Both the position numbers and the translations under genes were made by a program. Shown in pieces: positions 939 through 60,938 of a stretch of DNA of 64,000 bases. Every line of letters starts with the position of its first letter. Positions within the stretch are counted from its first letter, which is position 1. The notes under the pieces are model-generated. The model did not search any database. It was not told where the DNA came from and saw only the letters and a list, made by a program, of their open reading frames with translations. The DNA is from a virus, in IMG/VR virus record IMGVR_UViG_3300025120_014869, positions 14,261-78,260 of that record; one strand, given 5' to 3'.

Positions 939-1475
939 ATGAACATATTTTGTACTAATGATGATCCTATTTTATCTGCAAATGATCTATGTGACCAACA
1001 TGTAAGATCTAAAATGCAAATTGAAGGAGCAATTATGTTAGCTCATGCATTTGATCAAGAAGTATTGAATCATAAAGATTGTCCTAGAACAAAATTAGGT
1101 AAACCTCGTAAAAGTGGTAAAGGTTATTATAATCATCAATGTAGTATATGGGCTAGAGAAACAAGAGATAATTTTTTATGGTTAGTATTTCATACATTAA
1201 GAATGTTTCACGAAAGAAATTTAAGATGGCCTGATAGCAATCCACATCATACTCAAGCTTTTATTGAATGGTGCGGTGCTAATATGCATAATACTAGTAT
1301 ATCTACGCTAAAAAAAGGTAGAACTCCTTTTGCTATAGCTATTAGTGATAATTGTGAATGTCGTAAAAGTAGTAGTTTTAATAGTTTAACTACTATAGAA
1401 CAATATAGAGAATATATTAGGAAAGATAAACCTTTTGCTACTTGGACTAATAGAAAAAATCCAAGTTGGTATTAA
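939..1475 (+). CDS. Pyrimidine dimer DNA glycosylase / endonuclease V-like protein
   Basis: MNIF..DDP..SA..LCDQHV.SKM..E.A.ML, NH.CSIWARE, YREY...K.FATW pattern of the phage DenV-like family. Confidence 0.75.
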   Translation: MNIFCTNDDPILSANDLCDQHVRSKMQIEGAIMLAHAFDQEVLNHKDCPRTKLGKPRKSGKGYYNHQCSIWARETRDNFLWLVFHTLRMFHERNLRWPDSNPHHTQAFIEWCGANMHNTSISTLKKGRTPFAIAISDNCECRKSSSFNSLTTIEQYREYIRKDKPFATWTNRKNPSWY

Positions 1476-1888
1476 TCTAAGTTACCTTCTGCACTTACAT
1501 CAATAAGACCACCTAGCTGTTCTATAAAATCTTTACCAACTAAGATTTTGTATTCATTCTCTTCTCTATCACCTATTGAGAATTTAGTTTTAGGATAAAC
1601 ATTATCACCTATTTCAATATCAAATTCTACTACTGGTCTTTCTTCTATATTACCTGAACCGACATTTATATCTATTTTTTCTAATAAATCTTTAGTAATT
1701 TTTTTATCATTAACAGTAAAAAAAGTTACTTTATTATCGTGCTCTACTATATTAAAACCATGTAAGACATTATAAGCCCCGTTACCGCTATCTATTTTAG
1801 CTTCAACGGGGCCTAATTCTTTAAAAGTTATAGTTTCAATTAAACCTAATGGTTTATTTGATTCAAAGAAATTTTTAAATGATATCAC
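1472..1888 (-). CDS. Retropepsin-like (RimK-associated Zn-protease family) protease with capsid-targeting-like leader
   Basis: AKIDSGN catalytic D-S-G, ERPVV, ILVGKDFI; N-terminus MISFKNFFES. Confidence 0.75.
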   Translation of the reverse strand: MISFKNFFESNKPLGLIETITFKELGPVEAKIDSGNGAYNVLHGFNIVEHDNKVTFFTVNDKKITKDLLEKIDINVGSGNIEERPVVEFDIEIGDNVYPKTKFSIGDREENEYKILVGKDFIEQLGGLIDVSAEGNLD

Positions 1889-1905
1889 ACAATTATTTAT
1901 GCTTA

Positions 1906-2082
1906 CTAAGCATTCTTCTTGTCTTGAATTTCTTTTCTAATAACTTTCGTTAATTTAGCAATTTCAAGTAAAGCTTTACGAGCTCGTGTACCTGCTGCTG
2001 CATTGCGTTTTTCGTTAAATTTAGTCAAATTTTCTGTAAATTGACCGAATTGTTCGTTTAGTGATTCAATATTCTGTTCCAT
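1906..2082 (-). CDS. Histone H1-like Hc1-family protein (58 aa, not in ORF track)
   Basis: MEQNIESLNEQFGQFTENLTKFNEKRNAAAGTRARKALLEIAKLTKVIRKEIQDKKNA; N.AAGTRARK motif; TAAATA 7 nt upstream. Confidence 0.8.
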   Translation of the reverse strand: MEQNIESLNEQFGQFTENLTKFNEKRNAAAGTRARKALLEIAKLTKVIRKEIQDKKNA

Positions 2083-2105
2083 AATAAACTATTTACTATA
2101 AAAAA

Positions 2106-2372
2106 TTACTTTTTCCAGCTTACTCTCTTCGAACTTTTCTTTTTATACATTTTACCTTTTATTTTATTACATTCTGCTTTAGTAGGTCTACATGCAGGGT
2201 ATGAACCACCAGATTTTTTACTTTTACGTCCGCAAGGACCTCCAGTTTTACAATTAATCCAACCGCTAAATTTTTTACCAGTTTTAGGATCTGTACCTCC
2301 CCTTTTAAACCATTGACGTAAACTATCGCTAGCTTCATTTAAATAAAAATTAGCTAATTCGTCAAATTTCAC
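2106..2372 (-). CDS. Small basic Cys-containing protein, putative capsid-internal protein
   Basis: Leader MKFDELANFYLNE, then K/R-rich domain (WINCKTGGPCGRK...YPACRP). Confidence 0.7.
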   Translation of the reverse strand: MKFDELANFYLNEASDSLRQWFKRGGTDPKTGKKFSGWINCKTGGPCGRKSKKSGGSYPACRPTKAECNKIKGKMYKKKSSKRVSWKK

Positions 2373-2530
2373 GCTAATCCTTTTGCTTCTTTTGATGCGT
2401 GTAATTTATCACCAGCTTTTTTAGCAGCTTTATAAGCCTTAGAACCTTTTCTAGCTGATTTTTTACCAGATTTTTTCTTTTTGTTTATATTAGCCCATAA
2501 ACTTTCTAAAATTGTATCAAATTTATTCAT
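2369..2530 (-). CDS. Small Lys/Ala-rich protein (53 aa, not in ORF track)
   Basis: MNKFDTILESLWANINKKKKSGKKSARKGSKAYKAAKKAGDKLHASKEAKGLA; ATGA and GTGA overlaps with both neighbours. Confidence 0.75.
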   Translation of the reverse strand: MNKFDTILESLWANINKKKKSGKKSARKGSKAYKAAKKAGDKLHASKEAKGLA

Positions 2531-3021
2531 TTTTTCTTCCAAATTTTACCTTTACGGCATCTTACTATTGCACCAGATTTATATGCTGAAGTTTTTTTAC
2601 CATATACGCTATCAGCTTTTCTTTTACAACGATCTTCAGCGTCCTCTTGTTTTACACCTTTATCTCGTAATATTTTATCGAATATATTTGATAAAGTGTT
2701 TTTAACACCTGGTGATAATTGATCTGCTACGTTTTTATTTTTATTTTTTAACATAGCAGGGTAATCTTTTTTAAATAAATTTTCATTTGATTCGCTGTCT
2801 TCAGAATCATGTTTATAATGACCGCTCATTTTAGATTTTCTTAAATGATCTTTTAATGCTTCAACTTTAAGCATTCTATTTAACTTAAGTTTAAGCATAT
2901 CTACATACCTATTACCACCGTACATTTTAACTCTTTCCGGATCTGGGTTTTGAATCATTTTTTTAAGATCTTCGATAGCCTTATTAGATGATTCAGTAAA
3001 AAATTTAAAAGATTCTGTCAT
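2527..3021 (-). CDS. Modular basic protein, putative capsid-internal protein
   Basis: Leader MTESFKFFTE; internal EDAE followed by basic C-terminal module; TAAATA-N5-ATG. Confidence 0.7.
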   Translation of the reverse strand: MTESFKFFTESSNKAIEDLKKMIQNPDPERVKMYGGNRYVDMLKLKLNRMLKVEALKDHLRKSKMSGHYKHDSEDSESNENLFKKDYPAMLKNKNKNVADQLSPGVKNTLSNIFDKILRDKGVKQEDAEDRCKRKADSVYGKKTSAYKSGAIVRCRKGKIWKKK

Positions 3022-3032
3022 ATTATTATTTA

Positions 3033-3233
3033 TTATTTTTTCTTTCCACCCTTCATGTTAGCACACCAATGATACATTTTACCTTTCTCGCCTCCATATT
3101 TTTTAGCTTTTTTTCTAAGTTCAGTTACAGAACCTTTACAACTAGCACCGGATTTTTTTACTCTACCAGGTCTGCTTTTGCCTTTTATCTTTTTATCAGC
3201 ATAATTTTCGTGAAATGTTTTAAAATTTATCAT
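3033..3233 (-). CDS. Small basic protein, putative capsid-internal protein
   Basis: Leader MINFKTFHE; K-rich, HWCANMK motif. Confidence 0.7.
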   Translation of the reverse strand: MINFKTFHENYADKKIKGKSRPGRVKKSGASCKGSVTELRKKAKKYGGEKGKMYHWCANMKGGKKK

Positions 3234-3595
3234 TTTTTCTTCAATCTTTGTGTTTTTTTCTTACTAGCTTCTTTTCTCTTACTAATATATTTAAAAGCAG
3301 CTGTTAATCTTTTCTTTTTAATAGGGTCTTTTACTCTACCCTTTGCAGCTCTAACTCTTTGATGTATTAAATTTATAATTTGTGATTGCCTTGCATGGGA
3401 TTTAGATTTAAAAGTTTTTTTAGTTAATGTATCTCTGATATCAGATGTCGTACTAAATTTTACTTTAACAGTATCTTTAGGATTTTCATCAGTATAAAGT
3501 CTTCTACTTGAACCTTTAGGTTTTTTACCTGTACCTTTCTTAGGATCTGCTTCTAATAGAATTTTTTCTACTAAAGTATCAAATTTTCTTACCAT
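3230..3595 (-). CDS. Basic protein, putative capsid-internal protein
   Basis: Likely start MVRKFDTLVEKILLE (ATG 3595); DPKKGTGKKPKGSSRRLYTDENPKDTV. Confidence 0.7.
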   Translation of the reverse strand: MVRKFDTLVEKILLEADPKKGTGKKPKGSSRRLYTDENPKDTVKVKFSTTSDIRDTLTKKTFKSKSHARQSQIINLIHQRVRAAKGRVKDPIKKKRLTAAFKYISKRKEASKKKTQRLKKK

Positions 3596-3927
3596 TTTCT
3601 GCATGACCAATATCTTGCCATAGTTTTAGGACCTGGATTATCACAATTATGCCTAGCTCTAAATGATTTACGAGCTTTAGGGTTACTTTTACGTATTTTC
3701 ATTGTCTTTTCTCCACGTTTTTTTGCTGATGTACCGCCATGACCGAAGTTAACCTTCTTAACATTACCTGTTTTAGGATTTTTTACATAAACTTTAAATT
3801 TCTTAACGTCACCTCTCATTGGTTTATTTAATTTTACTTTACGACCTCTATATTCAGCATCTTCAGATGATGCCATAACTGGCCCATATTCATTTAAAAG
3901 TTCTATTACTAAATTATTAAACTGCAT
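3589..3927 (-). CDS. Basic protein, putative capsid-internal protein
   Basis: Leader MQFNNLVIELLNE; EDAE-YRGRKVKLNKP...KKVNFG...ARKSFRARHNC...RYWSC. Confidence 0.75.
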   Translation of the reverse strand: MQFNNLVIELLNEYGPVMASSEDAEYRGRKVKLNKPMRGDVKKFKVYVKNPKTGNVKKVNFGHGGTSAKKRGEKTMKIRKSNPKARKSFRARHNCDNPGPKTMARYWSCRKW

Positions 3928-3932
3928 AATTA

Positions 3933-3950
3933 TATTTATTTAATTAAATA
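3933..3950. promoter_or_regulatory. Back-to-back late promoters
   Basis: TATTTA 3933-3938 and TAAATA 3945-3950, each 5 nt from a divergent ATG. Confidence 0.7.
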
Positions 3951-3955
3951 ATAGT

Positions 3956-4510
3956 ATGGATAAAGAAACTAATTTGATTTTTGAAAAATACAAACAAGTA
4001 AATGAAGCTTTAGGGTTAGGTCCTAATACACCTTCTATGATTCATATAAAAGTTGGTGAAACTAAAGCTTTGAGACCAAAAACTCAACCACCAACTGAAG
4101 ATGAAATGGTTTTTATTCAAGCAGGTGATAAAGAAGAGGATTCAGATTGCGGTTGCGGAGGAGAATCTGAAGATGATTGCGGTTGCGATAGTAAAGAAGG
4201 TAAAACAATTTACGATGGTGAATTAGATATGGCTAGATTAGAATTATTAAAAGCTAATGAATACGCTGCAAAACTTTTTCATCATATAGGTAATCACCCT
4301 GATAGTGATTATTTAGAAGGCTGGGTTGCAAGTAAAATAACTAAAGCAGCTGATTATCTATCTTCTGTTTATCATTATCTAGATTATGAAGATAATTTTG
4401 CTACTAGAGAACCTTGTTATAGCGATGAGGAAGAAAATGAAGACGAAGATCTAGAAATAGACGATGATGAAATGACTAAAACAGCTCGCGAGTCTGGTTT
4501 TGGTGCTTAA
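3956..4510 (+). CDS. Acidic late protein with duplicated DCGC motif
   Basis: MDKETNLIFEKY leader; DCGC twice (13-nt repeat at 4145 and 4175); helical LEGWVASKITKAADYL domain. Confidence 0.75.
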   Translation: MDKETNLIFEKYKQVNEALGLGPNTPSMIHIKVGETKALRPKTQPPTEDEMVFIQAGDKEEDSDCGCGGESEDDCGCDSKEGKTIYDGELDMARLELLKANEYAAKLFHHIGNHPDSDYLEGWVASKITKAADYLSSVYHYLDYEDNFATREPCYSDEEENEDEDLEIDDDEMTKTARESGFGA

Positions 4511-6402
4511 ATTAACTTATTATCAAAAATACGTTTAATTTCTTCATCAAATGAACCGTAAAGATCAGTAATTAAGTTTCTTCTTAGTGTATCATCACCT
4601 GATTTATAAAGATATCTAATTTCTGAAGCACTTCTTATATCTTTATCTAATATATCAAAATCCATAGTAGGTAATGTTACGATATATCCATGTTTATCTA
4701 AAGTTTCAGACTTATCTAAATTTTCAAAAGGTTGGAAGTAACTAGGAGTACCATTTTTCTTAGTCCCGAACTTAAATCTCGGTTTATCACCTTCCATATC
4801 TTTAGCTGATACTGCAAAAATAAGAATTGTATTATCTGCAGTGTAATCTTGAACGATTTCTTTAGCTAAATATGGATTTACTACTTTTTTAACAAAATTA
4901 GGGTCAATTCCAGAACTTTGTATCATTTGAACTTTTTCATCGTAAGTAAATGGTGATCTTTCTGGATCAGTCTTTTCAGAAGTTGATATAAAAACGTCAC
5001 CATTAGGAAATTCCTGTTTTAGTTTATTATAAACTGAAGCATGACCTTTATGAAAAGGGTGAAATCTACCAGGATATATAACTAATATTTTTTTAGTAAC
5101 GTTATCATTAAATTCTTTTAAAAAATTATACATTTCACCAAAGGTATCTATAGAATGTCTTAATCTGGTACCTTCCCCAGTGTTAAATACTGGAGGGTTA
5201 TTAATATAATTTTCTTCATCACTTGGTTTACCTGCTAAAAAATTAGCTCTACTAAATTCTAACCTATCTACTAATTTTATTGCATTACCATCTCTATCAA
5301 TTGCTACATACCCTTCAGGAGAGGTTACTTTTAATGTACCATCACCGTTATCTATAAAATGTTTAGTAGTATATACAGCATTATTATATTTGTTTATAAA
5401 AATTTGTTTAGCATCAGAAAGTAACTTACTTACTTTAAAGAGATTAATAATATTATCTTTATCTCTTTTTATTTCATTTAATTTTTTAGTATATAGTAAT
5501 TTAACCTTTGATTTACCAGTATCACTTTTTCTTTTAGCAATTTCTCTTTCCATTCTACCTAAAAACCAATTTATAAAGCTATTATAAGAATCTTCAGGGT
5601 CTTTTAAGTATTCCCCTTCTTTAATTTCTACATTAGTGTAGATGTTTATAAGATCTAAAGGTAAGTCATTATAATCTACGTTTATACCATCTACAACATT
5701 TAAAATACCTTTTATTTGCTCTGACTCATCTTTAGTTAAAGTAACTACACCAGTATCATCTTTAAAATAAGCATCATCAACCCAAATATCATTAACTTCA
5801 TTTAAATTATCAATTTTAGCACCAAATCTAGCACCACCACCTAAATCATCATACTCAGTATGAAATATAATACCAAATTTAGATTCTTTTACCTTTTTAC
5901 CTAACTCAGAATCTTCTTCAATAGCATATTTTATTGTATTTGGTTTAAAAGTTATATGAGAAGTACCATCTATATCTTCTATTCTTTTAGATGAATCATC
6001 AAACATAAAATCACCTTGTAAGATATTTTTTATACCTAATTGAGGTAAGTATTTTAATGCTTTTTTAAGTTTATCAGCTAAACCTGGTGAACTACCATGA
6101 TTTAAATCAATATCACTCTCTGTATAATTAAACTTAGGGTTCATATTGAAAATAGATTTAGTACCAACAAAAAACTTACCGTTTTCAGGATTAATACCTG
6201 CAAATAATGCTGGTGCTCCGTCCCATTTAACTGTAGTACCTATTCTACCACTGTTAGTTTCAAGATGATTTAATAAATCATGTATAAATTTTCTTGCTAA
6301 TGTATATCCATCTTTACCCTTTTTAAGAATAAGTTCTTCTAAATGAGTTAAATGAGTATTAGCCTTTTTCTGCTCAGTAATATATTGTTTTAATGTTTTC
6401 AT
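4507..6402 (-). CDS. Fusion: ligase-fold nucleotidyltransferase + HxGH (cytidylyl/adenylyl)transferase
   Basis: Start reassigned to MKTLKQYITE (ATGA overlap at 6399-6402); KWDG, LQGD, EGYV, IKLV ligase-like motifs; C-terminal YPGRFHPFHKGH and RSASEIR. Confidence 0.75.
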   Translation of the reverse strand: MKTLKQYITEQKKANTHLTHLEELILKKGKDGYTLARKFIHDLLNHLETNSGRIGTTVKWDGAPALFAGINPENGKFFVGTKSIFNMNPKFNYTESDIDLNHGSSPGLADKLKKALKYLPQLGIKNILQGDFMFDDSSKRIEDIDGTSHITFKPNTIKYAIEEDSELGKKVKESKFGIIFHTEYDDLGGGARFGAKIDNLNEVNDIWVDDAYFKDDTGVVTLTKDESEQIKGILNVVDGINVDYNDLPLDLINIYTNVEIKEGEYLKDPEDSYNSFINWFLGRMEREIAKRKSDTGKSKVKLLYTKKLNEIKRDKDNIINLFKVSKLLSDAKQIFINKYNNAVYTTKHFIDNGDGTLKVTSPEGYVAIDRDGNAIKLVDRLEFSRANFLAGKPSDEENYINNPPVFNTGEGTRLRHSIDTFGEMYNFLKEFNDNVTKKILVIYPGRFHPFHKGHASVYNKLKQEFPNGDVFISTSEKTDPERSPFTYDEKVQMIQSSGIDPNFVKKVVNPYLAKEIVQDYTADNTILIFAVSAKDMEGDKPRFKFGTKKNGTPSYFQPFENLDKSETLDKHGYIVTLPTMDFDILDKDIRSASEIRYLYKSGDDTLRRNLITDLYGSFDEEIKRIFDNKLI

Positions 6403-7421
6403 CTTGATCCTACAAGGGTACAATCCCAGCCTCCACCATCAGCTCTATGACCGAAATCTAATACACCTTTTAAATTATTTATTTGAATATAAAAATCACT
6501 AATATTAGTTAAATTTTTCATATTTACAGACTGTAAAGCTAGATCATTACCAATATTATTAAAAGCTAAAAAATTATCAAACCCTTGAGCTTTTTTATAT
6601 TCAAATAACTGTACAACACCACCTATATACCTTAATAGATTAACTCCAAGTTTAGCAGACTTACCTCTTAATTTACCTTTCCGTAAGAAATAATCTCTTT
6701 CTACTACTAATCTATCATATAAATTATTATTTTTAGCTAATTCTATTATTTCACCTTTAGAATCCGGTACACCGCAATAGTGAGCTATAAACTCGCATAT
6801 TAATTCAAGTTGTTGATTATCATCTTTACCTTCCTCTTGTAGTTTTTCAAAATTAGTTTTTAAAGCTGCTGTCTTAAACATTCTACCACTAGGACCTTTT
6901 AATTCTACTTCTAAACCACCGGTACTTAAATCACCTTTCTTAGGTTTAATACCATCGGTTAAAAAAGCTAAAAATAATTCACCACATCCTGGTGATCCAT
7001 GCGTTGGAGCTTCTGGTACTGCACACCATGCGCTGCTAAAATAATTGTTATATACATCAGAGTTATGGAAACTATTTTTTACAAAAGCTTCTAACGTAAA
7101 AAACGAACTGTTTTCACATAATCCTAAAAAATCTGATTGAGCATGCTTAAAATTTTCTTCTTTTACTTCTAAATTAGCGCTATGAGAAAAACTTTGAAAA
7201 ATATTTAAATTATCATTTATATTACCACCTGCTTTATCTAATCTACCTTCAATTTCTTGTCTACCTGCTATACTATCAGTGGTACCCATCTTGACATACC
7301 TGGATAAAATATCATCATAATAGTTTTGATCTACATTAGCAAGTAGTTCATAGCTATCACCTTTTTTTGTATAAAGAGAAACGTCTTCTTTATAAATTTT
7401 ATCTAAAGATCTCCAGCTCAT
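6399..7421 (-). CDS. Putative PD-(D/E)xK nuclease-fold protein
   Basis: GCGELFLAFL...KGDL....LEVELKG matches E...GD...ExK catalytic spacing. Confidence 0.55.
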   Translation of the reverse strand: MSWRSLDKIYKEDVSLYTKKGDSYELLANVDQNYYDDILSRYVKMGTTDSIAGRQEIEGRLDKAGGNINDNLNIFQSFSHSANLEVKEENFKHAQSDFLGLCENSSFFTLEAFVKNSFHNSDVYNNYFSSAWCAVPEAPTHGSPGCGELFLAFLTDGIKPKKGDLSTGGLEVELKGPSGRMFKTAALKTNFEKLQEEGKDDNQQLELICEFIAHYCGVPDSKGEIIELAKNNNLYDRLVVERDYFLRKGKLRGKSAKLGVNLLRYIGGVVQLFEYKKAQGFDNFLAFNNIGNDLALQSVNMKNLTNISDFYIQINNLKGVLDFGHRADGGGWDCTLVGSR

Positions 7422-7744
7422 ACATCTATATCTATATCAGTTGAATATTTTTTCATGATATTGATTAATAGAGAAAGAGAACTTTTTGCATTTTTTTCAT
7501 TAATGTCTCCTAAACTAGTAATTGAATCAACATCATTAGAATCGATTTGTGTTACTAAAGCTTTTTTAATCATTCTAACTAAAAGTACCTCAGATTCAGG
7601 AGATAGTTTTTCAACCTCTGGTTCAGGTTGTTCTGCTACTTCGGTATCAGTAACTGTGGTAGTATCTGTTTCCATACCAGGTAATTCAGCACCTGTTTCA
7701 TCTTGTTCAAATACTTTATCAAATGCTTCTAAAAATTTTTTCAT
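7418..7744 (-). CDS. Acidic hypothetical late protein
   Basis: Leader MKKFLEAFDKVFE; acidic Thr-rich linker; ATGA overlap. Confidence 0.7.
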   Translation of the reverse strand: MKKFLEAFDKVFEQDETGAELPGMETDTTTVTDTEVAEQPEPEVEKLSPESEVLLVRMIKKALVTQIDSNDVDSITSLGDINEKNAKSSLSLLINIMKKYSTDIDIDV

Positions 7745-7745
7745 T

Positions 7746-8162
7746 TTATTTTATTCCCTCCGCTGCAGTTTTTATTTTACCTGCTATTTTTCTCATCATA
7801 ACCCCGTAAGCTTTATTAACTTCTTTTTGAGGATCTGGACCGAAAAGTCTTTCTTTTTCTGGACCAGTTGTTAATCTTTGAGCAATACCTATTGCATCTT
7901 CTGTAGATTTATCTAAAAACTCATTTTCAGCATCTTCAATTTCATTTGTCATATTATTAATTTTATTTAAAAATGACTTAAATTTTTGAGGATCGCTAAA
8001 TCTTAATCTACTTAAAATATCAGTTGCTTCTTCATTCTTTCCAGCTTTAATTAATTCGAAAACTTTAGATTCTAAATCTTCTTCATTTTCATCAGCTGCA
8101 TATTGATTTTCATATACCTTTTCAGCTAATATCTTATTAGCTATGCTTGTAAACTTATCCAT
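7746..8162 (-). CDS. Hypothetical late protein
   Basis: Leader MDKFTSIANKILAE; TAAATA-N5-ATG. Confidence 0.7.
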   Translation of the reverse strand: MDKFTSIANKILAEKVYENQYAADENEEDLESKVFELIKAGKNEEATDILSRLRFSDPQKFKSFLNKINNMTNEIEDAENEFLDKSTEDAIGIAQRLTTGPEKERLFGPDPQKEVNKAYGVMMRKIAGKIKTAAEGIK

Positions 8163-8170
8163 ATTATTAT

Positions 8171-8740
8171 TTATCTAATTAAAAGAAGTTTTGTTGATAA
8201 CTTGTTGAAGTAATCTTTATTTAAAAAAGTTAATTCATATCTTTTAGTAAACTTCTTTATATTAGAAAATGTATACCTACTAATATCAATTTTGTTTATT
8301 TTAGATATCATTGAATTAATAGTAGTTTGAGCTTTACCATCATTTTTATCAATAAGAAAAGTTAGGTATCCAATTGAGAATTTACTTATGTATATTTTTA
8401 CCGGTAATAATTTTTCTACCTTTCTTAAAGTATTATTAAAAAATAATAATAAATCCTTTTCTTTATAATATTTAAATATTTCACAATCATCTAACTGGGT
8501 ATTATTAAAGTAAATTAAAGTTTTACTTTTTGATTTTAATACCTTTTCACATACACCTAATATTATATAATGAAAGAAAAATTTCTTAACTAAAGAGTTA
8601 TTAATACTTTTATCTAACAACTTATATTCATGTAATGTATTAATTATTTCAGGTTGTATATCTTTAATAAACAAGTCATTAAAATCTACAATATTTAAAT
8701 CATAATTATCTAAACATAAATCAGGCATCATTATTATCAT
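8171..8740 (-). CDS. Hypothetical protein
   Basis: Long ORF packed between neighbours; true start may be the ATG near 8731. Confidence 0.65.
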   Translation of the reverse strand: MIIMMPDLCLDNYDLNIVDFNDLFIKDIQPEIINTLHEYKLLDKSINNSLVKKFFFHYIILGVCEKVLKSKSKTLIYFNNTQLDDCEIFKYYKEKDLLLFFNNTLRKVEKLLPVKIYISKFSIGYLTFLIDKNDGKAQTTINSMISKINKIDISRYTFSNIKKFTKRYELTFLNKDYFNKLSTKLLLIR

Positions 8741-9155
8741 TATAATACTGTTCCAGTAATTCTTTAGGTGGTCTACCTATTCTACAGTTTATAATACCAT
8801 TATAATAATTTTCATCCAATAATACATCTTTTTCAAATTGCATCTTTGATTCATAATAAGCTAATTCAAACTTATTATTACAAAACTTTAAAATTTTAAA
8901 AACAAATTTATCTAAACCTAATGTACCCATATCTATTTTCAAGGAATCGCTACTACCAACATAGGTTTTCCAATCACTTTCTTTATAGTCAATACGTTTA
9001 CGTTTTTTACCTTTAAGAGGTAAGCGTTTTATTTTACGCTTCATTTGTTTTTTACCTATATATTTTTTACCGTTAGTTATATTAACGATCTCATATATAA
9101 AGCCAAACGCTTCTTCAGGTACAGGGCCGTAAACTTTCCAGTGACCTGTATCCAT
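8721..9155 (-). CDS. GIY-YIG family endonuclease (short, stand-alone)
   Basis: GFIYEIVNITNGKKYIGKK...ESDWKTYVGSS...YYE...YYN. Confidence 0.8.
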   Translation of the reverse strand: MDTGHWKVYGPVPEEAFGFIYEIVNITNGKKYIGKKQMKRKIKRLPLKGKKRKRIDYKESDWKTYVGSSDSLKIDMGTLGLDKFVFKILKFCNNKFELAYYESKMQFEKDVLLDENYYNGIINCRIGRPPKELLEQYYNDNNDA

Positions 9156-9663: not shown

Positions 9664-9684
9664 GTAAGTATTTATAATTATAAT

Positions 9685-10080
9685 GTGGATATTTTAGAAA
9701 AGTATATAAGTGAGATAGAAAAAGATTTAGAGATCAATGAATTTAATCTTAAAGATTCATCGATGAAAACTCCTGCTCGTAAACATTATTGGGTAAGTAA
9801 ACTTATCAATCATAAAAAAAATCTTATTAGGTTAAAAAAGGAAAAAGATAATTTAAAGAAAAATATAACATTTCAAATTATTGAGGAAAGTCCAATCAAA
9901 GTAACAACTCCAACTGCTGAAAGAGCTGCATTGAATCATGAAAAAATGATAACTATGTCAGAAAAAATAAAAGAGGAAGAATTGGTTATTGAATTTTTAG
10001 AAAAGACTGAAAAAACTTTTAGTGCTATTGGTTTTGATATAAAAAATATTATTGAAATTATGAAAATGGAACAATTATGA
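9685..10080 (+). CDS. uvsY: Recombination mediator UvsY
   Basis: DLEINE..L...SMKTP..KHYW...GFDIKNIIE; directly upstream of uvsW. Confidence 0.75.
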   Translation: MDILEKYISEIEKDLEINEFNLKDSSMKTPARKHYWVSKLINHKKNLIRLKKEKDNLKKNITFQIIEESPIKVTTPTAERAALNHEKMITMSEKIKEEELVIEFLEKTEKTFSAIGFDIKNIIEIMKMEQL

Positions 10081-11510
10081 TTGAGTTTAAATTAGATAAA
10101 AATAAAATTAAAGTTGTAACTTCTAATTTAGATGAAATAAGAGAGTATTTTAGTGTTAATGACGATACAGCAAGATTTAGATTTAAAGGTAGAGCAAGAT
10201 TTATAGTCTCGCCTAGAATATATTGTATAACACCAACAGGTTTATTTGAACCTGGAATGTTTTATGATGTTTTGACTTATATAAAAATGCAATATCCGAA
10301 TGAAGATATTATAGTTGATAATGATATAACTTCTTTAGTAAAGCCAGTTCTTAAAGATGTAAAATTGTATAATAATTTAAAGTATGAATTGAGAGATTAC
10401 CAACAAGAAGCTTGTAAAAATGCTATTGCATTTGGTAGAGGTATTCTTAAAATGGGTACCGGTGCTGGTAAAACTTTAACTATATGTTCTTTATTAATGA
10501 GTTTATATCTTCAAAAAAAAGAAAAGAAGGAATCATTTAAATGCTTATTAATTGTACCAGATTTAGGTCTTGTTAGTCAAACATATACTGATTTTGAGCA
10601 GTATAATGCGTTATTTAAATTTACTAAATGGACAGGAAAAAATAAACCAGATTTAACAGCAAATGTTATTATTGCTAATTTAGGTATATTACAAAGCCGT
10701 TTTATTGAAAATGATTGGTTGAAAGAAGTAGATGCTCTTGTTATAGATGAGTGTCATAAAGTTAAAAAATCAAATAAGATTAGTAAAATGGTACAGCAGA
10801 TAAAAACAGCACATAAATTCGGTTTAACTGGTACGTTACCTGATAATAAACCTGATGAATGGAATATTAAAGGTAAAATAGGAAAGGTAATTTATGATAA
10901 AGATAGCTATGAACTAAGACTAGAAAAGTATCTAACTACAGTAAACGTTAGTATTATAGATTTAAAATATAATGATAAGCCTTTATACGTTTCAGGTACT
11001 AATAATTTTAAAAATGAACTTGATTTTATATATACAAATGAATTTAGAAATAATTTAATAAAAGGTATGTGTAGTAAATTTGATAATAATTCTCTTATAT
11101 TAGTTAATCATTTAGCACATGGTGATGCGTTATATAATAAACTCTCAGAATGCGAAAATAAGCAAGTATTCTTTGTAAAAGGAGAAGTAGAAGTTGAGAC
11201 TAGAGATGAAATTAAAAAAATAATGGAAACTAATAATAATGTTATTTGTATAGCAATGAGTTCAATTTTTAGTACAGGTATTAATATTAAAAATATACAT
11301 ATGATTATGTTTGCATCTGGTGGTAAAAGTTTTATTAGAACAATTCAATCTATAGGTAGAGGTTTAAGATTACATGATAATAAAAATAAATTAGTAATAA
11401 TAGATTTAGCAGATCACTTAAAATATGGTGAAAGACATTCCCTTAAGAGAAAAGAAATATATAATCAAGAAAAAATAAATTATAAAATTACTGAAATAGT
11501 TGAAAAATAA
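10077..11510 (+). CDS. uvsW: SF2 DNA helicase UvsW
   Basis: LRDYQ, GTGAGKT, DECH, GLTGT, STGINI, QSIGRGLR. Confidence 0.92.
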   Translation: MIEFKLDKNKIKVVTSNLDEIREYFSVNDDTARFRFKGRARFIVSPRIYCITPTGLFEPGMFYDVLTYIKMQYPNEDIIVDNDITSLVKPVLKDVKLYNNLKYELRDYQQEACKNAIAFGRGILKMGTGAGKTLTICSLLMSLYLQKKEKKESFKCLLIVPDLGLVSQTYTDFEQYNALFKFTKWTGKNKPDLTANVIIANLGILQSRFIENDWLKEVDALVIDECHKVKKSNKISKMVQQIKTAHKFGLTGTLPDNKPDEWNIKGKIGKVIYDKDSYELRLEKYLTTVNVSIIDLKYNDKPLYVSGTNNFKNELDFIYTNEFRNNLIKGMCSKFDNNSLILVNHLAHGDALYNKLSECENKQVFFVKGEVEVETRDEIKKIMETNNNVICIAMSSIFSTGINIKNIHMIMFASGGKSFIRTIQSIGRGLRLHDNKNKLVIIDLADHLKYGERHSLKRKEIYNQEKINYKITEIVEK

Positions 11511-11532: not shown

Positions 11533-12012
11533 ATGGCTAATACTAAAAAAACTACCACGAAAAAAACTACTGGTAAAAGACGAGGACCTAAACCTAAAAA
11601 GACTGAATACTATGTTGATCCTCGAGATTTAAAAGCTGAACTAGTAGCTTATTATGATAGTGAAGATTGTTCTAGAGAACTTGCTGATATGATTCATAAA
11701 ATAGCCCATGGTTTAAGTTATTCATCTAATTTTATAAACTATACATATAGAGATGAAATGGTAGGAGACGCATTAGTAAAAATGTATACTGCAGTTACAA
11801 ATAAGAAATTTGATATAACGTCTGAATATAATCCATTTAGTTATTTTACTACTATTGCTTTTCATGCGTTTATTAACCGTATAAAGAAAGAAAAGAAACA
11901 TACTGAAACTTTAAACCAATATAAAGAAAAGGTTTATGAACAAGAAATGATCGACTCAACTGATGGCATGGTTTACGTTAAGCCGTTAAATGAAGACGAT
12001 AGTGATGAGTAG
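11533..12012 (+). CDS. gp55: Late transcription sigma factor gp55
   Basis: KIAHGLS...NFINYTYRDEMVGDA...NPFSYFTTIAFHAFINRIKKEKK. Confidence 0.92.
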   Translation: MANTKKTTTKKTTGKRRGPKPKKTEYYVDPRDLKAELVAYYDSEDCSRELADMIHKIAHGLSYSSNFINYTYRDEMVGDALVKMYTAVTNKKFDITSEYNPFSYFTTIAFHAFINRIKKEKKHTETLNQYKEKVYEQEMIDSTDGMVYVKPLNEDDSDE

Positions 12013-13051
12013 GGTAGCTATTTTTTCAGATCTTCATCTTGGTGTACATCAAAATAATGATTTTTGGTTAGGTATATCTAATAAATGGGTTGAATGGTAT
12101 ATTGGTAAACTGAAGGAAAATAATATTAGTGAGATTATTTTCTGTGGTGATTTCTTTCATTATAGAGATGAAATATCTGTTAAGACGTTAAATTTTGCAA
12201 AAGACTTATTAGATAAATTTAATGATTTTAAAATTACTATGATTACCGGTAATCATGATGCTTGGTATAAAGATACAAGTGAAATAAACAGTTTAAGTAT
12301 CTTTAAAGGATATAAAAATATTAAAATTTATGATAAACTTCAAACGGTCGATTTATATAATAACGACGTGACGTTTTGTCCTTGGGGTACTAAAATAGAT
12401 GATATACCAAAAAGTGATGTTTTATTTGGTCATTTTGAATTAGAAAATTTTAAAATGAATGCATTTAAAATATGTGATCATGGAGATGATCCTGAAGTAT
12501 TGATTAAAAAATGTTCTTTAATTTTTTCAGGGCATTTTCATAGAGAAGATACTAAAAATTTTAATAGTGGTGAGAGTAAAATAATTTATGTCGGCAACCC
12601 TTTTGAAATGGATTTTGGTGATATAGGTTCAAAGAAAGGGTTTTATATTTTTGATTTTAATGATAAAAAATTAGAATGGATAGATAATGATATTACACCT
12701 AAACATCATAAAATATTTTTATCTAAATTAATTAACTGTAAAAATATACATGTAGAAAATTTATTTGAAAAAATATTACCTGGTAATATAATAAAATTAA
12801 TTATTGATAAAAATATTAGTACTGAACATTTAGATATTCTTACAGCTAAATTTACATCGTGTAGACCTGTAGAATTAAGGATAGATTATGATATTAATTA
12901 TAATAAACTTAAAATAGAAAATGATATGGATTATGATCTATCAGGAGTTGATATCAATCATGCTATAGAAGAATTTATTAATTTGTTAGATATAGAAAAT
13001 AAAAGAGATGTTGTTAATTATACACAATCTTTATATGAAAAAGTTAAATGA
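12005..13051 (+). CDS. gp47: Recombination endonuclease subunit gp47 (Mre11/SbcD-like)
   Basis: SDLHLG, GDFFH, GNHD, GHFE, SGHFH; start reassigned to ATG 12005. Confidence 0.92.
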   Translation: MSRVAIFSDLHLGVHQNNDFWLGISNKWVEWYIGKLKENNISEIIFCGDFFHYRDEISVKTLNFAKDLLDKFNDFKITMITGNHDAWYKDTSEINSLSIFKGYKNIKIYDKLQTVDLYNNDVTFCPWGTKIDDIPKSDVLFGHFELENFKMNAFKICDHGDDPEVLIKKCSLIFSGHFHREDTKNFNSGESKIIYVGNPFEMDFGDIGSKKGFYIFDFNDKKLEWIDNDITPKHHKIFLSKLINCKNIHVENLFEKILPGNIIKLIIDKNISTEHLDILTAKFTSCRPVELRIDYDINYNKLKIENDMDYDLSGVDINHAIEEFINLLDIENKRDVVNYTQSLYEKVK

Positions 13052-39257: not shown

Positions 39258-40943
39258 ATGGCCAAAGATAAACAAAACTATATGAATAACCCTAATCTAC
39301 CTACAGTAGGGGCTGAATTTCAATATACACCAGAGATGGTTCAAGAGTTAAAAAAATGTGATAAAAACATTTTACATTTTGCAGAAAATTATTTCCATAT
39401 TATTTCATTAGATGAAGGTAAGCAAAATATAAAATTACACTTATGTCAGAAAAGAGCTTTACGTAAAATGCGTGATAATCGCTTCTTTATATTACTAGCA
39501 AGTAGACAGATAGGTAAAACTACTATGATGACAATATATGCTTTATGGGTAGCATGTTTTAACCCTGATCAAAGAATATTAATAGTAGCTAATAAAGAAG
39601 GCACTGCTATCGAGATAATGAGTAGAATTAGACTAGCTTATGAAGAATTACCAAATTGGTTGAAACCTGGAGTTAAAGAATATGGTAAAACTTCAGTAGT
39701 TTTAGCAAATGGTACAAAAATAGGTATATCAACTACTACAGGTACTGCAGCTCGTGGTCAATCAGTTAATTGCTTAATATTAGATGAGCTTGCTTTTATT
39801 GAACCACATTTAGTAGAAGATTTCTGGAAATCAGTATATCCAATTATTTCATCATCTAAAAAATCTAAAATTTTTATAGCTTCAACAGCTAACGGTACAG
39901 ATAATTTATTTTATAGTTTATATAGCGGAGCTGAAAATGGTGAAAATGGATGGGCTAGTGATAAAATATTATGGAATGAAGTACCAGGGAGAAATGAAAG
40001 ATGGAAACAAGAAACTATAAGTAGTATAGGTAGTCAAGAAGCTTTTCAGCAAGAATTTAACTGCGAATTTATAAGCAGTGGTGAAGCTTCATTAGATGAT
40101 GAGTTATTTGAAAGGTTATCTACACAAGTATGCGAACCAAAATATGTCTTTGATGATGGTAAGTACTTATTATGGGATCAACCTAAAGAAGATCGTATAT
40201 ATATAGCAAGTGTTGATACATCTGAAGGATTAGGTAAAGATGCTTCAGTAGTACAAATATTAGATTATACTGATCTTACTAGAATCAATCAAGTTGCTGT
40301 ATATTATAACAATGAAATATCACCTTATAACTTTACTATTAAGGTCCACGAAATATTACAACACTGGGGTAACCCATTAGTATGTATAGAACGTAACAAC
40401 AGTGGTAGCCAAGTAGTTGATATACTTAAAAATACGCATGATTATGAAAATATAATTTCTTGGGGATCTTCTACAGCTAATAGAAATAAAAGTCAATTAG
40501 GTATCGTATCACATACTAATACAAAGTATAGAGGTGTAACAAATATGAGATATTGGATAAATGAAGTGGAAGCAGTTCAGATAAATGACATTAGATTAGT
40601 TAAAGAGTTAAAAACCTATGTAAAAGCTGCTAACGGTACATGGAATGCACGTAAAGGTTATCATGATGATTTAGTCACCTCATTAATGTGGAACTTAATT
40701 GCACTAATTGATGATATAGTTGACAAATATTTTGAAGTTACAAAAAAAGATGCTAATAATAGGCCATTAGAGCTTCAACAATTCGATTATGGTATTAAAT
40801 ATTTTATGGACCCTACTTCTTTATATACTAATGAAAAGCAAGGGGCCAGCAACACATTGCCTATTATTATAGGTAATGCTCAACAAACACAAAGTGAAAT
40901 GGAACAATTAATGCAACAAGGATATAAACCATGGCAGTCGTAA
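39258..40943 (+). CDS. gp17: Terminase large subunit gp17
   Basis: YMNNPNL, SRQIGKTT, LILDELAF, ASTANG, FQQEF.CEF, VDTSEG, ERNN, HDDLV. Confidence 0.95.
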   Translation: MAKDKQNYMNNPNLPTVGAEFQYTPEMVQELKKCDKNILHFAENYFHIISLDEGKQNIKLHLCQKRALRKMRDNRFFILLASRQIGKTTMMTIYALWVACFNPDQRILIVANKEGTAIEIMSRIRLAYEELPNWLKPGVKEYGKTSVVLANGTKIGISTTTGTAARGQSVNCLILDELAFIEPHLVEDFWKSVYPIISSSKKSKIFIASTANGTDNLFYSLYSGAENGENGWASDKILWNEVPGRNERWKQETISSIGSQEAFQQEFNCEFISSGEASLDDELFERLSTQVCEPKYVFDDGKYLLWDQPKEDRIYIASVDTSEGLGKDASVVQILDYTDLTRINQVAVYYNNEISPYNFTIKVHEILQHWGNPLVCIERNNSGSQVVDILKNTHDYENIISWGSSTANRNKSQLGIVSHTNTKYRGVTNMRYWINEVEAVQINDIRLVKELKTYVKAANGTWNARKGYHDDLVTSLMWNLIALIDDIVDKYFEVTKKDANNRPLELQQFDYGIKYFMDPTSLYTNEKQGASNTLPIIIGNAQQTQSEMEQLMQQGYKPWQS

Positions 40944-41545: not shown

Positions 41546-41576
41546 TTTTTATTGCGAAGACAATAAATAATAATAT

Positions 41577-43994
41577 ATGGCTAGAACAATACAATCTCCC
41601 GGTGTAGAAATAAAAGAAATAGATCAAAGTTTGCGACCAGTCTTACCAGCTGGAACTAACGTATTAGTTGCAGGATTTACAGATCAAGGCCCTTCAGACG
41701 AGGTAATCCAGGTTACAAGTCAGAGTGAGTTCGAACAAATTTATGGCATACCCAAAACTCCAGCAGAGAGATATTTTTATCATAGTGTAAGACCACTATT
41801 TCAGTCTCCTGCTAACATTCAAACATATCGCTTACCTTATGGCGATGATAAAGGTAGAGGATTTGGAAATAAATATTCCGCTTTAGTATACACTGCAAGT
41901 GCTTATGATATGTCTAATATTGGTACAAGACAATTCGGTACTACGATGGAGACTTATAATGAGCAGGAGACAGATGTTGCATATGTTCTTAATGCCCCGC
42001 AACATGTTGAATTGACTGAAACTCAATATAATGATATTTTACAAAAGAAGACATTTAATTGGTCAGCAAGTGCAGCAAGAGGAAGCGATGCATTTAGTGG
42101 AGATGATTTAGCAACATTAGGTAGATCAGCTTTAATTGTTCTTAATAAAGCTCAAACAACTATTAATAATAAATTTGAAGGATTTTATTTAGGTGGTATT
42201 GATAATACAAATCTTAACCCTGCTACTAATTTTGATGGTATTCAAAATGCATTTACCGTAGCAGTATCAGGAGATAAAAAATTAGTTTCAGATTATACTA
42301 AATTACCAGCAACAAGATTACAGTTTGCGTTATCAAGCGTATCTGATAATAGTACTGATACATTCGGAGTAGATGATGGTAGTGTTTCAGAGGTAATGGA
42401 AAACTTAACGCAGTTTGATATTAGTAGTGAAGATTTTAATGACACCCTTTCATTCGGTCTATTTAAATTAAGACAATCACCATTCTCACCTGATAGCATT
42501 AAATTAGATTATGTTTTATCAGAAAGTTTTGTAGGTTCTACTGATTATCATAGACAAATTCAATCAAAAGACGGTGGTGTACCAAAGAGCTTTTATTTAG
42601 ATACAGTAGAAGATGGTTCTCCTAATGTTATAGTTTTAACTAATGACTTTATTTCAAATAGAAATAGTGACGGTTATGCTGATATTAATGGTAACCCAAC
42701 AAAGATTGTTAGATTTGCATCAGGTGTTAAAAAAGCACAAGGCGATTTTGATAATAATACTGCTACATTCGGAGTAAGTAGTGAATACATTCCAAGTTAT
42801 TTCGCTGCATCAAGTGGAGTTACAGACGCTCAAATGACTAACTTAAGGAATAATTTAAATGCACAAGCAACTAATTTTCCAGCAGATTCATTATTTCCAG
42901 TAGGAGTATATTCTGATAATAAATCAGATTCTAAAAGATTAGGTTCTATACCTGGTAAATTAGATAGATTATTTGACAGTGTAGAAAATGTAGATTTATT
43001 TGATATTGATCTTACAATTGATGGTGGTATTTCAACAATACATGCAATGAAAGAATTGAATAATGATGAATTTGACGATCTTATATCAGTCGATTCTACA
43101 ATGCAAGGTTTTTATACATCAGATATTATTAATGGGTTATCAGATAGTGCTAAGACATTTAGATCTAATTGGAAAACAATCTTTGATAGATTTTCTGATT
43201 TTGCTGAAAAGCGTAGAAAAGATCATATGTTTATTTCTGACTTACCGAGACCATTATTCCTACAAGGTAAAAGTAATTTAACTTTAAATGATGCAAGTAA
43301 GAATTTCTCATTAAACGTTCTTAAACCAATCCAAGCTCATACAAGTGTTGTTAATACAAGTTATGCAACAACGTATGGTCAGTGGGTGCAGATTTATGAT
43401 TCATATTTAGATGATCAGTTCTACGCACCGTTCTCAGGGTTTGCAGCAGCTTCAATGGCAAATACAGATGCTAATTTCCAACCTTGGTTTGCACCAGCAG
43501 GATTTACAAGAGGGATTGTTACAGGTGTTAATGATTTAGCATTATATCCAAAACAAAAACAAAGAGATCAGTTATATAAGATTTCAGTTAATCCAGTTGC
43601 GTTCTTCCCGAATGAAGGGTTTGTAATGTTTGGTCAAAAGACTTTACTTAAGAAACCAAGTGCATTTGATAGAATTAATGTAAGACGTTTATTCTTGAAT
43701 CTTGAAAAAGCAGTTAGACAGACAGTTAAGTTCTTCGTATTTGAACCTAATACATTGCTAACAAGAACAAGAGTTATCAATACCATTAATCCTATTTTTG
43801 CAAATGCTAAGAATACTGAAGGAGTTTTCGATTATTTGTTAGTTTGTGATGAGAGAAATAATACACCAAATGTTATTGATCAGAACGAATTGGTGGTAGA
43901 CATCTACTTAAAACCAGTTAGAGCGGCAGAATTTATATTAGTTAACTTTTATGCTACCAGAACAGGTACAGACTTTAATGAATTAGTTGGTTAA
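41577..43994 (+). CDS. gp18: Tail sheath protein gp18
   Basis: SPGVEIKEID, PWFAPAGFTRG, GQKTL...SAFDRINVRRLF, FEPN, IYLKPVRAAEFI. Confidence 0.96.
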   Translation: MARTIQSPGVEIKEIDQSLRPVLPAGTNVLVAGFTDQGPSDEVIQVTSQSEFEQIYGIPKTPAERYFYHSVRPLFQSPANIQTYRLPYGDDKGRGFGNKYSALVYTASAYDMSNIGTRQFGTTMETYNEQETDVAYVLNAPQHVELTETQYNDILQKKTFNWSASAARGSDAFSGDDLATLGRSALIVLNKAQTTINNKFEGFYLGGIDNTNLNPATNFDGIQNAFTVAVSGDKKLVSDYTKLPATRLQFALSSVSDNSTDTFGVDDGSVSEVMENLTQFDISSEDFNDTLSFGLFKLRQSPFSPDSIKLDYVLSESFVGSTDYHRQIQSKDGGVPKSFYLDTVEDGSPNVIVLTNDFISNRNSDGYADINGNPTKIVRFASGVKKAQGDFDNNTATFGVSSEYIPSYFAASSGVTDAQMTNLRNNLNAQATNFPADSLFPVGVYSDNKSDSKRLGSIPGKLDRLFDSVENVDLFDIDLTIDGGISTIHAMKELNNDEFDDLISVDSTMQGFYTSDIINGLSDSAKTFRSNWKTIFDRFSDFAEKRRKDHMFISDLPRPLFLQGKSNLTLNDASKNFSLNVLKPIQAHTSVVNTSYATTYGQWVQIYDSYLDDQFYAPFSGFAAASMANTDANFQPWFAPAGFTRGIVTGVNDLALYPKQKQRDQLYKISVNPVAFFPNEGFVMFGQKTLLKKPSAFDRINVRRLFLNLEKAVRQTVKFFVFEPNTLLTRTRVINTINPIFANAKNTEGVFDYLLVCDERNNTPNVIDQNELVVDIYLKPVRAAEFILVNFYATRTGTDFNELVG

Positions 43995-47595: not shown

Positions 47596-47616
47596 TATTT
47601 TTTATAAATATTATTA

Positions 47617-60903: not shown

Positions 60904-60938
60904 CTTTAATAATCACTTTTTTATTATAAATAATCTTA

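Follow-up and report, generated by a model that had tools for sequence, protein, structure and literature searches.

T4-like cyanophages and pelagiphage-type myoviruses are abundant ocean viruses. In phage T4, capsid targeting is known for the small internal proteins and for Alt, and the T4 head protease gp21 cuts after Leu/Ile-x-Glu. Within the polynucleotide ligase superfamily, motif V normally carries two lysines (KxK), DNA ligases need an OB domain and motif VI, and the absence of an OB domain is typical of RNA ligases, not of DNA ligases or capping enzymes. Among the HxGH nucleotidyltransferases, an ISSTxxR motif is typical of the nicotinamide mononucleotide (NMN), nicotinic acid mononucleotide (NaMN) and phosphopantetheine adenylyltransferases. 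Here we describe a gene (4507-6402, minus strand) from a stretch of 64,000 nucleotides (nt), hereafter the window, which covers positions 14,261 to 78,260 of IMG/VR record IMGVR_UViG_3300025120_014869 and comes from an uncultured marine T4-like myovirus. Its product of 631 amino acids (aa) represents a new, so far uncharacterised variant of the ligase superfamily at the family level, and this variant is coupled to an HxGH adenylyltransferase. Behind an N-terminal leader it consists of a DUF6267 domain, predicted from structural modelling to belong, as a very divergent member, to the superfamily of the covalent lysine nucleotidyltransferases (polynucleotide ligases), followed by a linker and an HxGH nucleotidyltransferase domain, and we are confident of this architecture and fold.

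The gene is a single open frame with its stop at 4507-4509. The frame is opened by a TTG at 6423, but the real start is almost certainly ATG 6402, since this codon and the stop of the preceding gene (6399-7421) overlap in the sequence ATGA and since close homologues of the protein start with MKT(F/L)KQY. Pfam assigns residues 15-392 to DUF6267 (E 2.8e-95, above the gathering cut-off) and residues 442-532 to CTP_transf_like (PF01467; E 6.8e-10, 39.7 bits against a cut-off of 21), and in PHROGs the protein matches a family of unknown function and 'cytidyltransferase'. These assignments bear out the initial annotation, which had read the gene from its sequence as a fusion of a ligase-fold and an HxGH nucleotidyltransferase. 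All strings that it quoted (TVKWDG, LQGDF, GIIFH, EGYV, IKLV, TFGEMYNFLKE and GRFHPFHKGH) are present in the order it gave, at the positions collected in Table 1. The ligase fold of the N-terminal domain held as a predicted fold in the AlphaFold model, the Protein Data Bank (PDB) scan and the viral structure library, and the Rossmann-like HxGH domain was recovered with PF01467, TIGR00125 and a match to the PDB entry 1f9a.

The case for a ligase fold in DUF6267 is made by the ligases that fill the top structural ranks, by the catalytic motifs standing in order and by the conservation of these motifs. A first model of the N-terminal domain, built from 32 close sequences, had a predicted local distance difference test score (pLDDT) of 72.6, and its long matches were, without exception, to RNA or DNA ligases. 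The second, an AlphaFold model built from 150 cluster representatives, reached a pLDDT of 92.5 and a predicted template modelling score (pTM) of 0.90, and was scanned against 48,161 PDB representatives. The 13 best matches were all polynucleotide ligases (Z 8.6-5.9, 168-199 residues aligned), with the RNA ligases on top: Naegleria NgrRnl (Rnl5, 5cot; Z 8.6, root mean square deviation 4.0, 186 residues), the fungal Trl1 ligase domain (9r3w and 6n0t; Z 8.1 over 199 aa, and 7.4), T. brucei REL1 (1xdn; Z 7.6), T4 Rnl1 (9do4; Z 7.6), an archaeal RNA ligase (Z 7.1) and T4 Rnl2 (2hvq and 1s68; Z 7.0 and 6.9). DNA ligases scored Z 6.2-5.1, the human capping enzyme Z 5.1 and the LigA adenylation domain Z 4.8. 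In the viral structure library, 21 members of the family itself came first, and the first named outsiders were RNA ligases of phages and giant viruses. Past motif V (residues 374-380) the model contains one helix (380-389), then a low-confidence linker and then the HxGH fold, and with this single helix after motif V there is thus neither an OB domain nor a motif VI in DUF6267.

Motifs I, III, IIIa, IV and V of DUF6267 occur in the canonical order of the superfamily. Conservation was measured across the 150 cluster representatives, which are 36-74% identical to the protein, and reached at least 90% for K59, D61 and G62 of motif I (K59 being the candidate adenylate-accepting lysine), for Q129, G130 and D131 of motif III, for T182 and Y184 of motif IIIa, in which G177 and H181 are invariant, and for E363, G364, K376, V378, D379 and R380 of motifs IV-V. 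This near-invariance argues that the motifs are not due to chance. The N-terminal HLxHLE[DE] motif is invariant in the DUF6267 family and is, to our knowledge, not known in ligases, and the five-helix insertion between motifs IIIa and IV is specific to DUF6267, other ligases being compact there; structure scans returned only generic helical-bundle matches for the insertion. In profile searches of PDB sequences, all matches were confined to the HxGH part, with none in DUF6267, and no ligase family came up when 40 multidomain relatives were scanned with Pfam at E up to 0.1. A local match of 19-21 residues links motifs IV-V with T4 Rnl1 IEGYVAVMKDGSHFKI, which at E 0.03-0.05 is not significant, and both the profile of the T4 Rnl1 family (PF09511 and PF20819) and the Rnl1-specific N- and C-terminal modules are absent from the protein.

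DUF6267 is a very large family restricted to viruses, with at least 7,844 members among the 8,000 candidate proteins scored and 2,384 clusters at 50% identity, and it is not mentioned in the literature searched. It was found in 406 phage records, mostly of T4-like Synechococcus and Prochlorococcus phages, further carriers being Pelagibacter phage HTVC008M, Methylophilales phage Melnitz and Stenotrophomonas phage DLP6. The 150 representatives comprise 110 standalone and 40 multidomain proteins; in 19 of the latter an HxGH domain precedes or follows DUF6267, and the HxGH subfamily of the window stands N-terminal to DUF6267 in relatives such as P0034. The same two-domain architecture as in the window was found in 17 metagenomic cluster representatives (P0003-P0019; 64-100% identity) from several sources, which argues that the fusion is not an assembly artefact. 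Of 80 viral loci, 10 had DUF6267 and HxGH fused and 35 had an HxGH gene within 6 kb, always on the same strand, and a fused or neighbouring HxGH was present in 20 of the 29 adequately flanked viral loci (~70%). Phage S-PM2 has an independent DUF6267-HxGH fusion of 591 aa, and in S-SZBM1, HTVC008M, Melnitz and DLP6 the two are encoded by neighbouring genes. The module of HTVC008M (L002; 6715-7377 and 7374-9164) includes a P-loop kinase of the Zeta-toxin/AAA_33 type (E 3e-13), its HxGH protein also carries DUF5824, and in DLP6 the DUF6267 protein adjoins a 722-aa cytidylyltransferase. Taken together, fusion in both orders and conserved synteny argue strongly for a shared function of the two domains, and the presence of both split and fused states, the latter in either order, fits the two formerly separate cargo genes proposed in the initial annotation. 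In a metagenomic relative of 1045 aa (P0125), the stretch between the N-terminal HxGH and C-terminal DUF6267 domains (residues ~235-400) was read by eye as carrying HAD-phosphatase-like motifs (DFDDT...TILTAR...K...FIDDS); Pfam and PDB sequence searches lent this no support, and the candidate was dropped.

The HxGH domain exceeds the cut-off of the generic superfamily model TIGR00125 (32.7 bits against 27.7), and the archaeal NMN adenylyltransferase 1f9a matches residues 445-499 (55 residues, E 1.6e-5). In the family profile, the region around RSASEIR, the counterpart of the ISSTxxR phosphate-binding motif, aligns with SsTkiR of the NaMN adenylyltransferase 8aih, and phosphopantetheine and NaMN adenylyltransferases score nearly as high with this profile. 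As only generic superfamily models are passed, the domain can be placed as adenylyltransferase-type, with no specific substrate class. There was no blastp match (E 1e-3) to the HxGH proteins of the cyanophages, HTVC008M, Melnitz or DLP6. A second, ordinary cytidylyltransferase-like gene is located at 31025-31495 (plus strand; PF01467, E 3.8e-15) and overlaps an epimerase-like gene (31488-32441, plus strand); it probably belongs to sugar-nucleotide metabolism and is unrelated to the fusion protein.

At the sequence level, the leader MKTLKQYITE resembles the T4 capsid-targeting sequence, of which it would be a homologue or analogue: in the translated T4 record, IPII and IPIII begin with MKTYQEFIAE, identical at 5/10 positions, and IPI begins with MKTFKEF. 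Residues 1-10 are the least confident part of the model (pLDDT 55) and lie outside both the fold and the Pfam model. The family leader has the consensus M-K-S/T-F-K-Q-F/Y-L/I-x-E, then K-N-T-HLEHLED; a hydrophobic-x-Glu is found at most 14 residues before the conserved HLxHLED in 130 of the 150 representatives, and a leader-like string also precedes internal DUF6267 domains (e.g. ...WWKEQLTEVITE-TKANTHL). Cyanophage forms of DUF6267 (S-PM2, S-SZBM1_141) have no leader and start with MAKNTHLEHLED, which indicates that the leader is a detachable module and not part of the fold. Similar N-termini are present on unrelated neighbours encoded on the same strand (MINFKTFHEN, MTESFKFFTES, MNKFDTILES, MISFKNFFES and MKKFLEAFDKVFEQ). 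A loose leader pattern was observed 11 times at the N-termini of neighbours against 3.3 expected (p 5e-4), a figure that is indicative only, the pattern having been picked post hoc; a weight matrix derived from the DUF6267 leaders gave 2 against 0.74 expected on neighbouring N-termini, which is not significant because the register of the neighbours is one residue shorter.

A second leader-like string, TFGEMYNFLKE, lies in the linker, 9 residues ahead of the first HxGH-domain strand. In the form GEMY(N/S)(I/F)(L/I)KEF it is kept in fused homologues of 72-75% identity (P0004, P0005, P0009, P0010 and P0019), its conservation is weaker in P0014, P0018 (65% identity) has lost or never had it, other fusion types have a different hydrophobic-x-Glu string at the linker position, and the leaderless cyanophage fusions have a short linker with no internal string. 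The whole fusion protein contains only 7 [LI]-x-E sites. HxGH enzymes which are separate or N-terminal have leaders of their own (MKSFLQFLKEA, MRFRQFIIEA, MKKFSEIIEA, MSLSEWLVES), and an internal string is therefore what would be expected from joining two leader-bearing genes; TFGEMYNFLKE may be a leader that was kept, or a site for the head protease. Both strings singled out in the initial annotation are thus conserved in relatives and resemble the T4 capsid-targeting sequence. Elsewhere on the minus strand of the window, 1472-3927 encodes a run of small, very basic proteins that start with the pattern M-x-x-F-x-x-F-x-E. In the metagenomic relative P0128, DUF6267 is joined directly to a homologue of the 3230-3610 protein, which ties the small basic proteins to the DUF6267 module, and the 138-aa product of 1472-1888 (minus strand), which starts with the leader-like MISFKNFFES, narrowly passes the Pfam cut-off for Zn_protease (PF05618, 'putative ATP-dependent zinc protease'; E 1.3e-6).

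Homologues of the HxGH domain recur in published virion proteomes of T4-like cyanophages, and two were detected by mass spectrometry of purified virions, namely ORF91 of S-SCSM1 (PMC9602691) and ORF140 of S-SZBM1 (PMC9146016). ORF154 of S-CREM2, named 'cytidylyltransferase/NMNAT-like', was likewise detected in virions (PMC10665884), and the virion proteome of S-CBWM1 is cited in the cyanophage proteome papers as listing the same protein type. Leaders are present on both S-SZBM1 ORF140 (MRFRQFIIEA...) and S-SCSM1 ORF91 (MKSFLQFLKEA...), and in the GenBank record of S-SCSM1 the ORFs on either side of ORF91 (89, 90, 92 and 93) are labelled as virion proteins as well.

In the window, four tightly coupled genes (7746-8162, 7418-7744, 6399-7421 and 4507-6402) form a run that ends with the fusion gene and is headed by an ATAAATA element 5 nt in front of ATG 8162, the spacing also seen at the tail sheath gene; no element of this type is found between 8162 and 6402. 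The T4 late promoter is TATAAATA, and by analogy with it the operon would be transcribed, and the fusion gene expressed, late. ATAAATA followed after 5-9 nt by a start codon was found for 19 open reading frames in the window, that of the tail sheath (41577) included, a T4-like late geometry under which the late mRNAs would have little or no leader and could not accommodate a Shine-Dalgarno sequence. One further case concerns 38313-38900 (minus strand), where ATAAATA stands 5 nt before an internal ATG; the 195-aa product (MKSTFDKLFEN..., leader-like) is nested in a 308-aa frame, whose own start also follows ATAAATA. Just upstream of the presumably late operon, 8721-9155 (minus strand) is GIY-YIG homing-endonuclease-like (PHROG 'NAD synthetase' and 'homing endonuclease', E 3e-30).

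We give an even chance to the reading that the product is a late, head-targeted and injected fusion, of which the first domain seals ends and the second supplies an adenylylated cofactor. The protein would be loaded into the prohead via its 10-residue leader, the head protease would trim it after Ile-Thr-Glu, perhaps with a further cut following Leu-Lys-Glu in the linker, and it would be injected along with the DNA as a repair or counter-defence kit ready for use. K59 would then be adenylylated and the AMP passed to a 5'-phosphate end, which would be sealed, the substrate being more probably RNA or a nick than the nicks of duplex DNA replication. The second domain, with its HxGH and SxxxxR motifs and its nearest relatives among the NMN, NaMN and phosphopantetheine adenylyltransferases, would make or regenerate an adenylylated cofactor, for instance nicotinamide adenine dinucleotide (NAD+), or another adenylyl donor, and may work for the reaction of the first domain or alongside it. 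Taken separately, packaging into the head is something we lean towards by a little, and the specific chemistry proposed for both domains is tentative and rather doubtful.

A number of observations weigh against this reading. Motif V has a single lysine, K376 (K-L-V-D-R), the second being replaced by the conserved V378. No ligase family was found for the protein in Pfam at E up to 1, nor any ligase match to the profiles PF01068, PF09414, PF09511 and PF01653, and hhalign comparisons of the 150-sequence DUF6267 profile gave probabilities of at most 3%, both with T4 Rnl1, Rnl2 and gp30 and with a 24-sequence profile of the Rnl1 family, a trimmed re-run included. The best structural match, at Z 8.6, barely exceeds the middling range of the aligner, and of the structural check proposed in the initial annotation one part stood, the ligase-topped ranking, and the other did not: Foldseek against the PDB gave nothing at E <=0.001 with either model, though ligases had the highest probabilities. 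The HxGH domain misses all curated NMN-adenylyltransferase cut-offs, with the archaeal model TIGR01527 reaching 33.8 bits against a curated 181.2 and covering residues 442-507 only, so that an assignment as NMN adenylyltransferase does not hold by these cut-offs. With regard to packaging, the authors of the virion proteomes themselves caution that abundant enzymes may co-purify with virions (PMC10665884), and the leaderless DUF6267 protein next to ORF140 of S-SZBM1, ORF141, does not appear in the passages of the virion proteome table (PMC9146016). As far as those passages go, a leaderless ORF141 that is unlisted and a leader-bearing ORF140 that is detected fit a rule of leader-dependent loading, in this one case, and equally imply that packaging is not family-wide. 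A head protease (PF03420) was not found on the 78-kb record, which is an estimated 37% complete, and the control genomes gave no match either, so that this negative carries no weight.

Were the protein instead an intracellular ligase for replication and repair which replaces the gp30 DNA ligase, with the HxGH domain supplying its cofactor and the N-terminal string merely a structural helix, its genomic setting would be well explained, as the gene lies beside gp43, uvsX, gp41 or mazG in S-PM2, HTVC008M, S-SZBM1 and Melnitz, and 3.7 kb from gp41 in the window. No match to PF01068, PF01653 or PF09414 was found in S-PM2, HTVC008M and S-SZBM1, and none to PF01068 in Melnitz, and the cyanophage versions of DUF6267 have no leader. 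A review counts gp30 among the quasi-core replication genes often missing from one or more marine cyanophages (PMC2993671), and the DLP6 paper treats it as a non-cyanophage core protein (PMC5349666). DLP6 itself, however, encodes a canonical ATP-dependent DNA ligase (PF01068, E 2.5e-15) as well as DUF6267, which weakens the idea of a missing replicative ligase. In addition, the fusion protein has no OB domain or motif VI, as a DNA ligase would need, RNA ligases rank above DNA ligases in the structural comparison, the promoter element of the operon is of the late type and its context neither early nor middle, and unrelated proteins have the leader too, as do homologues detected in virions; we regard this explanation, the main rival, as improbable. 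About as low a probability is given to nucleotidyl transfer other than ligation (adenylylation of proteins or small molecules, or a cap-like modification), or to a non-catalytic fold accompanying an HxGH enzyme that makes NAD+ or another dinucleotide and so offsets NAD+-depleting defences. The single lysine of motif V, the large helical insert and the invariant HLxHLE[DE], for which we know of no ligase counterpart, speak for such a role, as do the NMN adenylyltransferases as nearest sequence relatives of the C-terminal domain. Phage NAD+ reconstitution pathways, reportedly the subject of Osterman et al. 2024, point the same way. The cyanophage literature also reads the virion enzymes as NAD+-related (PMC9602691). 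Against it stand the conservation of all catalytic-motif positions that define step 1 chemistry, the wide margin by which the NMN-adenylyltransferase cut-offs are missed, and the P-loop kinase in the HTVC008M module, as in RNA repair systems that heal and seal ends. Nor was a Nampt-like partner seen, although no search aimed at one was made.

That the fusion is a frameshift or assembly artefact of two genes, or functionally irrelevant, would agree with most relatives being separate genes, as shown by the 110 standalone proteins among the 150 representatives. We consider it very improbable indeed, given the continuous architecture and linker common to P0003-P0019, the independent fusion in S-PM2 and the fusions in both domain orders. 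A more far-reaching version of the injected-fusion reading, which we think unlikely, is a capsid-loaded polyprotein cut at both hydrophobic-x-Glu strings into a sealer of a new RNA-ligase-like family and an adenylyltransferase, available as a coupled pair from the start of infection. The HxGH enzyme might then regenerate NAD+ from NMN for an NAD+-using ligase, or the pair, together with the nuclease-like neighbour described below (and with a kinase in relatives), might repair tRNAs or further RNAs that host defence nucleases have cut, ahead of the expression of any phage gene.

Under the injected-fusion reading, an anonymous pair of 'cytidyltransferase' and 'hypothetical protein' becomes a concrete hypothesis, that ocean phages inject a kit for nucleotide transfer or end sealing, and we argue that in most lineages both DUF6267 and the HxGH enzyme carry a T4-style head-loading tag. 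What distinguishes the window is that the pair is fused and has kept a leader-like string inside the fusion. If the reading is true, the T4 capsid-targeting system would be extended to large enzymes and to cleavable polyproteins, a matter of practical interest where foreign proteins are to be packed into phage heads.

The window, part of a viral contig fragment, has a G+C content of ~28%. T4-type replication and structural genes are present in it (Table 1), and megablast of its first 20 kb against phage records gave no match. The 340-aa protein encoded directly upstream (6399-7421) has a stretch, GE...KKGD-x8-EVELK, that reads like the motif of a PD-(D/E)xK nuclease, and its language-model look-alikes are all restriction-endonuclease families, though the score is only 0.81. 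Neither Pfam nor PHROGs assigns the protein a function, and there is no blastp match to the proteins at the same position in HTVC008M, Melnitz and DLP6.

Table 1. Positions, in window coordinates, of the fusion gene, its domains and motifs, and the neighbouring genes and promoter-like elements.
Feature	Position	Strand	Basis or remark
Whole gene, 631 aa + stop: leader, DUF6267 ligase-like domain, linker, HxGH nucleotidyltransferase domain	4507..6402	-	
N-terminal leader MKTLKQYITE, residues 1-10, ending Ile-x-Glu	6373..6402	-	resembles T4 capsid-targeting sequence
DUF6267 domain, residues 15-392, predicted covalent nucleotidyltransferase fold of polynucleotide-ligase superfamily	5227..6360	-	Pfam and model
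Family-specific N-terminal motif ANTHLTHLEEL	6331..6363	-	H17 and H20 at least 90% conserved
Motif I-like TVKWDG, residues 57-62; K59 candidate adenylate-accepting lysine	6217..6234	-	
Motif III-like LQGDF, residues 128-132	6007..6021	-	
Motif IIIa-like GIIFHTEY (GIIFH, residues 177-181)	5851..5874	-	
Five-helix insertion of ~120 aa, residues 224-342, between motifs IIIa and IV	5377..5733	-	model secondary structure
Motif IV-like EGYVAI (EGYV, 363-366) and motif V-like AIKLVDR (IKLV, 375-378)	5263..5316	-	
Inter-domain linker, residues 393-438	5089..5226	-	
Second leader-like string TFGEMYNFLKE, residues 420-430, ending Leu-x-Glu	5113..5145	-	conserved in fused homologues
HxGH (cytidylyltransferase-like) nucleotidyltransferase domain, residues 439-631	4510..5088	-	PF01467, TIGR00125, 1f9a match
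GRFHPFHKGH, residues 445-454, HxGH nucleotide-binding signature (HKGH, 451-454)	5041..5070	-	
RSASEIR, residues 590-596, counterpart of ISSTxxR phosphate-binding motif	4615..4635	-	profile alignment
Upstream translationally coupled gene, 340 aa; possible PD-(D/E)xK nuclease (weak lead)	6399..7421	-	ATGA overlap
ATAAATA, T4-late-promoter-like, 5 nt upstream of ATG 8162 heading the operon	8168..8174	-	
ATAAATA, example site	9669..9676	-	
ATAAATA, example site	3933..3939	-	
ATAAATA, example site	41560..41576	+	
ATAAATA, example site	47603..47610	+	
ATAAATA, example site	60925..60932	+	
gp41-like helicase	10077..11510		
SbcD/gp47-like gene	11990..13051		
Large terminase	39258..40943		
Tail sheath	41577..43994	+	

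When compared with described systems, the best match in the viral structure library is S-PM2d138 (T4-GC 71; 591 aa, E 1.8e-33), which has the same DUF6267-HxGH order, whereas it is only 34% identical, has no leader, has a short linker without an internal string and belongs to another HxGH subfamily. The archaeal or NadM-type NMN adenylyltransferases (TIGR01527; 1f9a, 1ej2) share GRFxPFHKGH, then PFTxxE, and an SxxxxR near the C-terminus, although the match is limited to the first third of the HxGH domain. With the OB-less ATP-dependent RNA ligases (NgrRnl, Trl1, REL1, T4 Rnl1 and Rnl2) the DUF6267 domain has in common the predicted fold (Z 8.6-6.9 over 176-199 residues), a KxDG lysine motif, the order of motifs III, IIIa, IV and V and the lack of a C-terminal OB domain, and with T4 Rnl1 also a nearly identical EGYVA...K stretch at motifs IV-V. 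It differs from these ligases in having no profile relationship to them, in its 120-aa helical insert, its single motif V lysine and its own HLxHLE[DE], and the family-specific accessory domains of Rnl1, Rnl2, Rnl3 and Rnl5 are absent from it. The HxGH proteins of cyanophage virions (S-SZBM1 ORF140, S-SCSM1 ORF91 and S-CREM2 ORF154) are alike in superfamily, DUF6267-adjacent neighbourhood and type of leader, while they belong to a different subfamily (GRFNPPTxGH, as opposed to GRFHPFHKGH here) and are separate proteins accompanied by a leaderless DUF6267. Finally, the protein resembles the T4 internal proteins IPI, IPII and IPIII in its 10-residue N-terminal string ending in hydrophobic-x-Glu, and its gene, presumed to be late, lies among genes of small basic proteins with similar N-termini, whereas the cargo itself would be a large two-enzyme fusion with a second, internal string.

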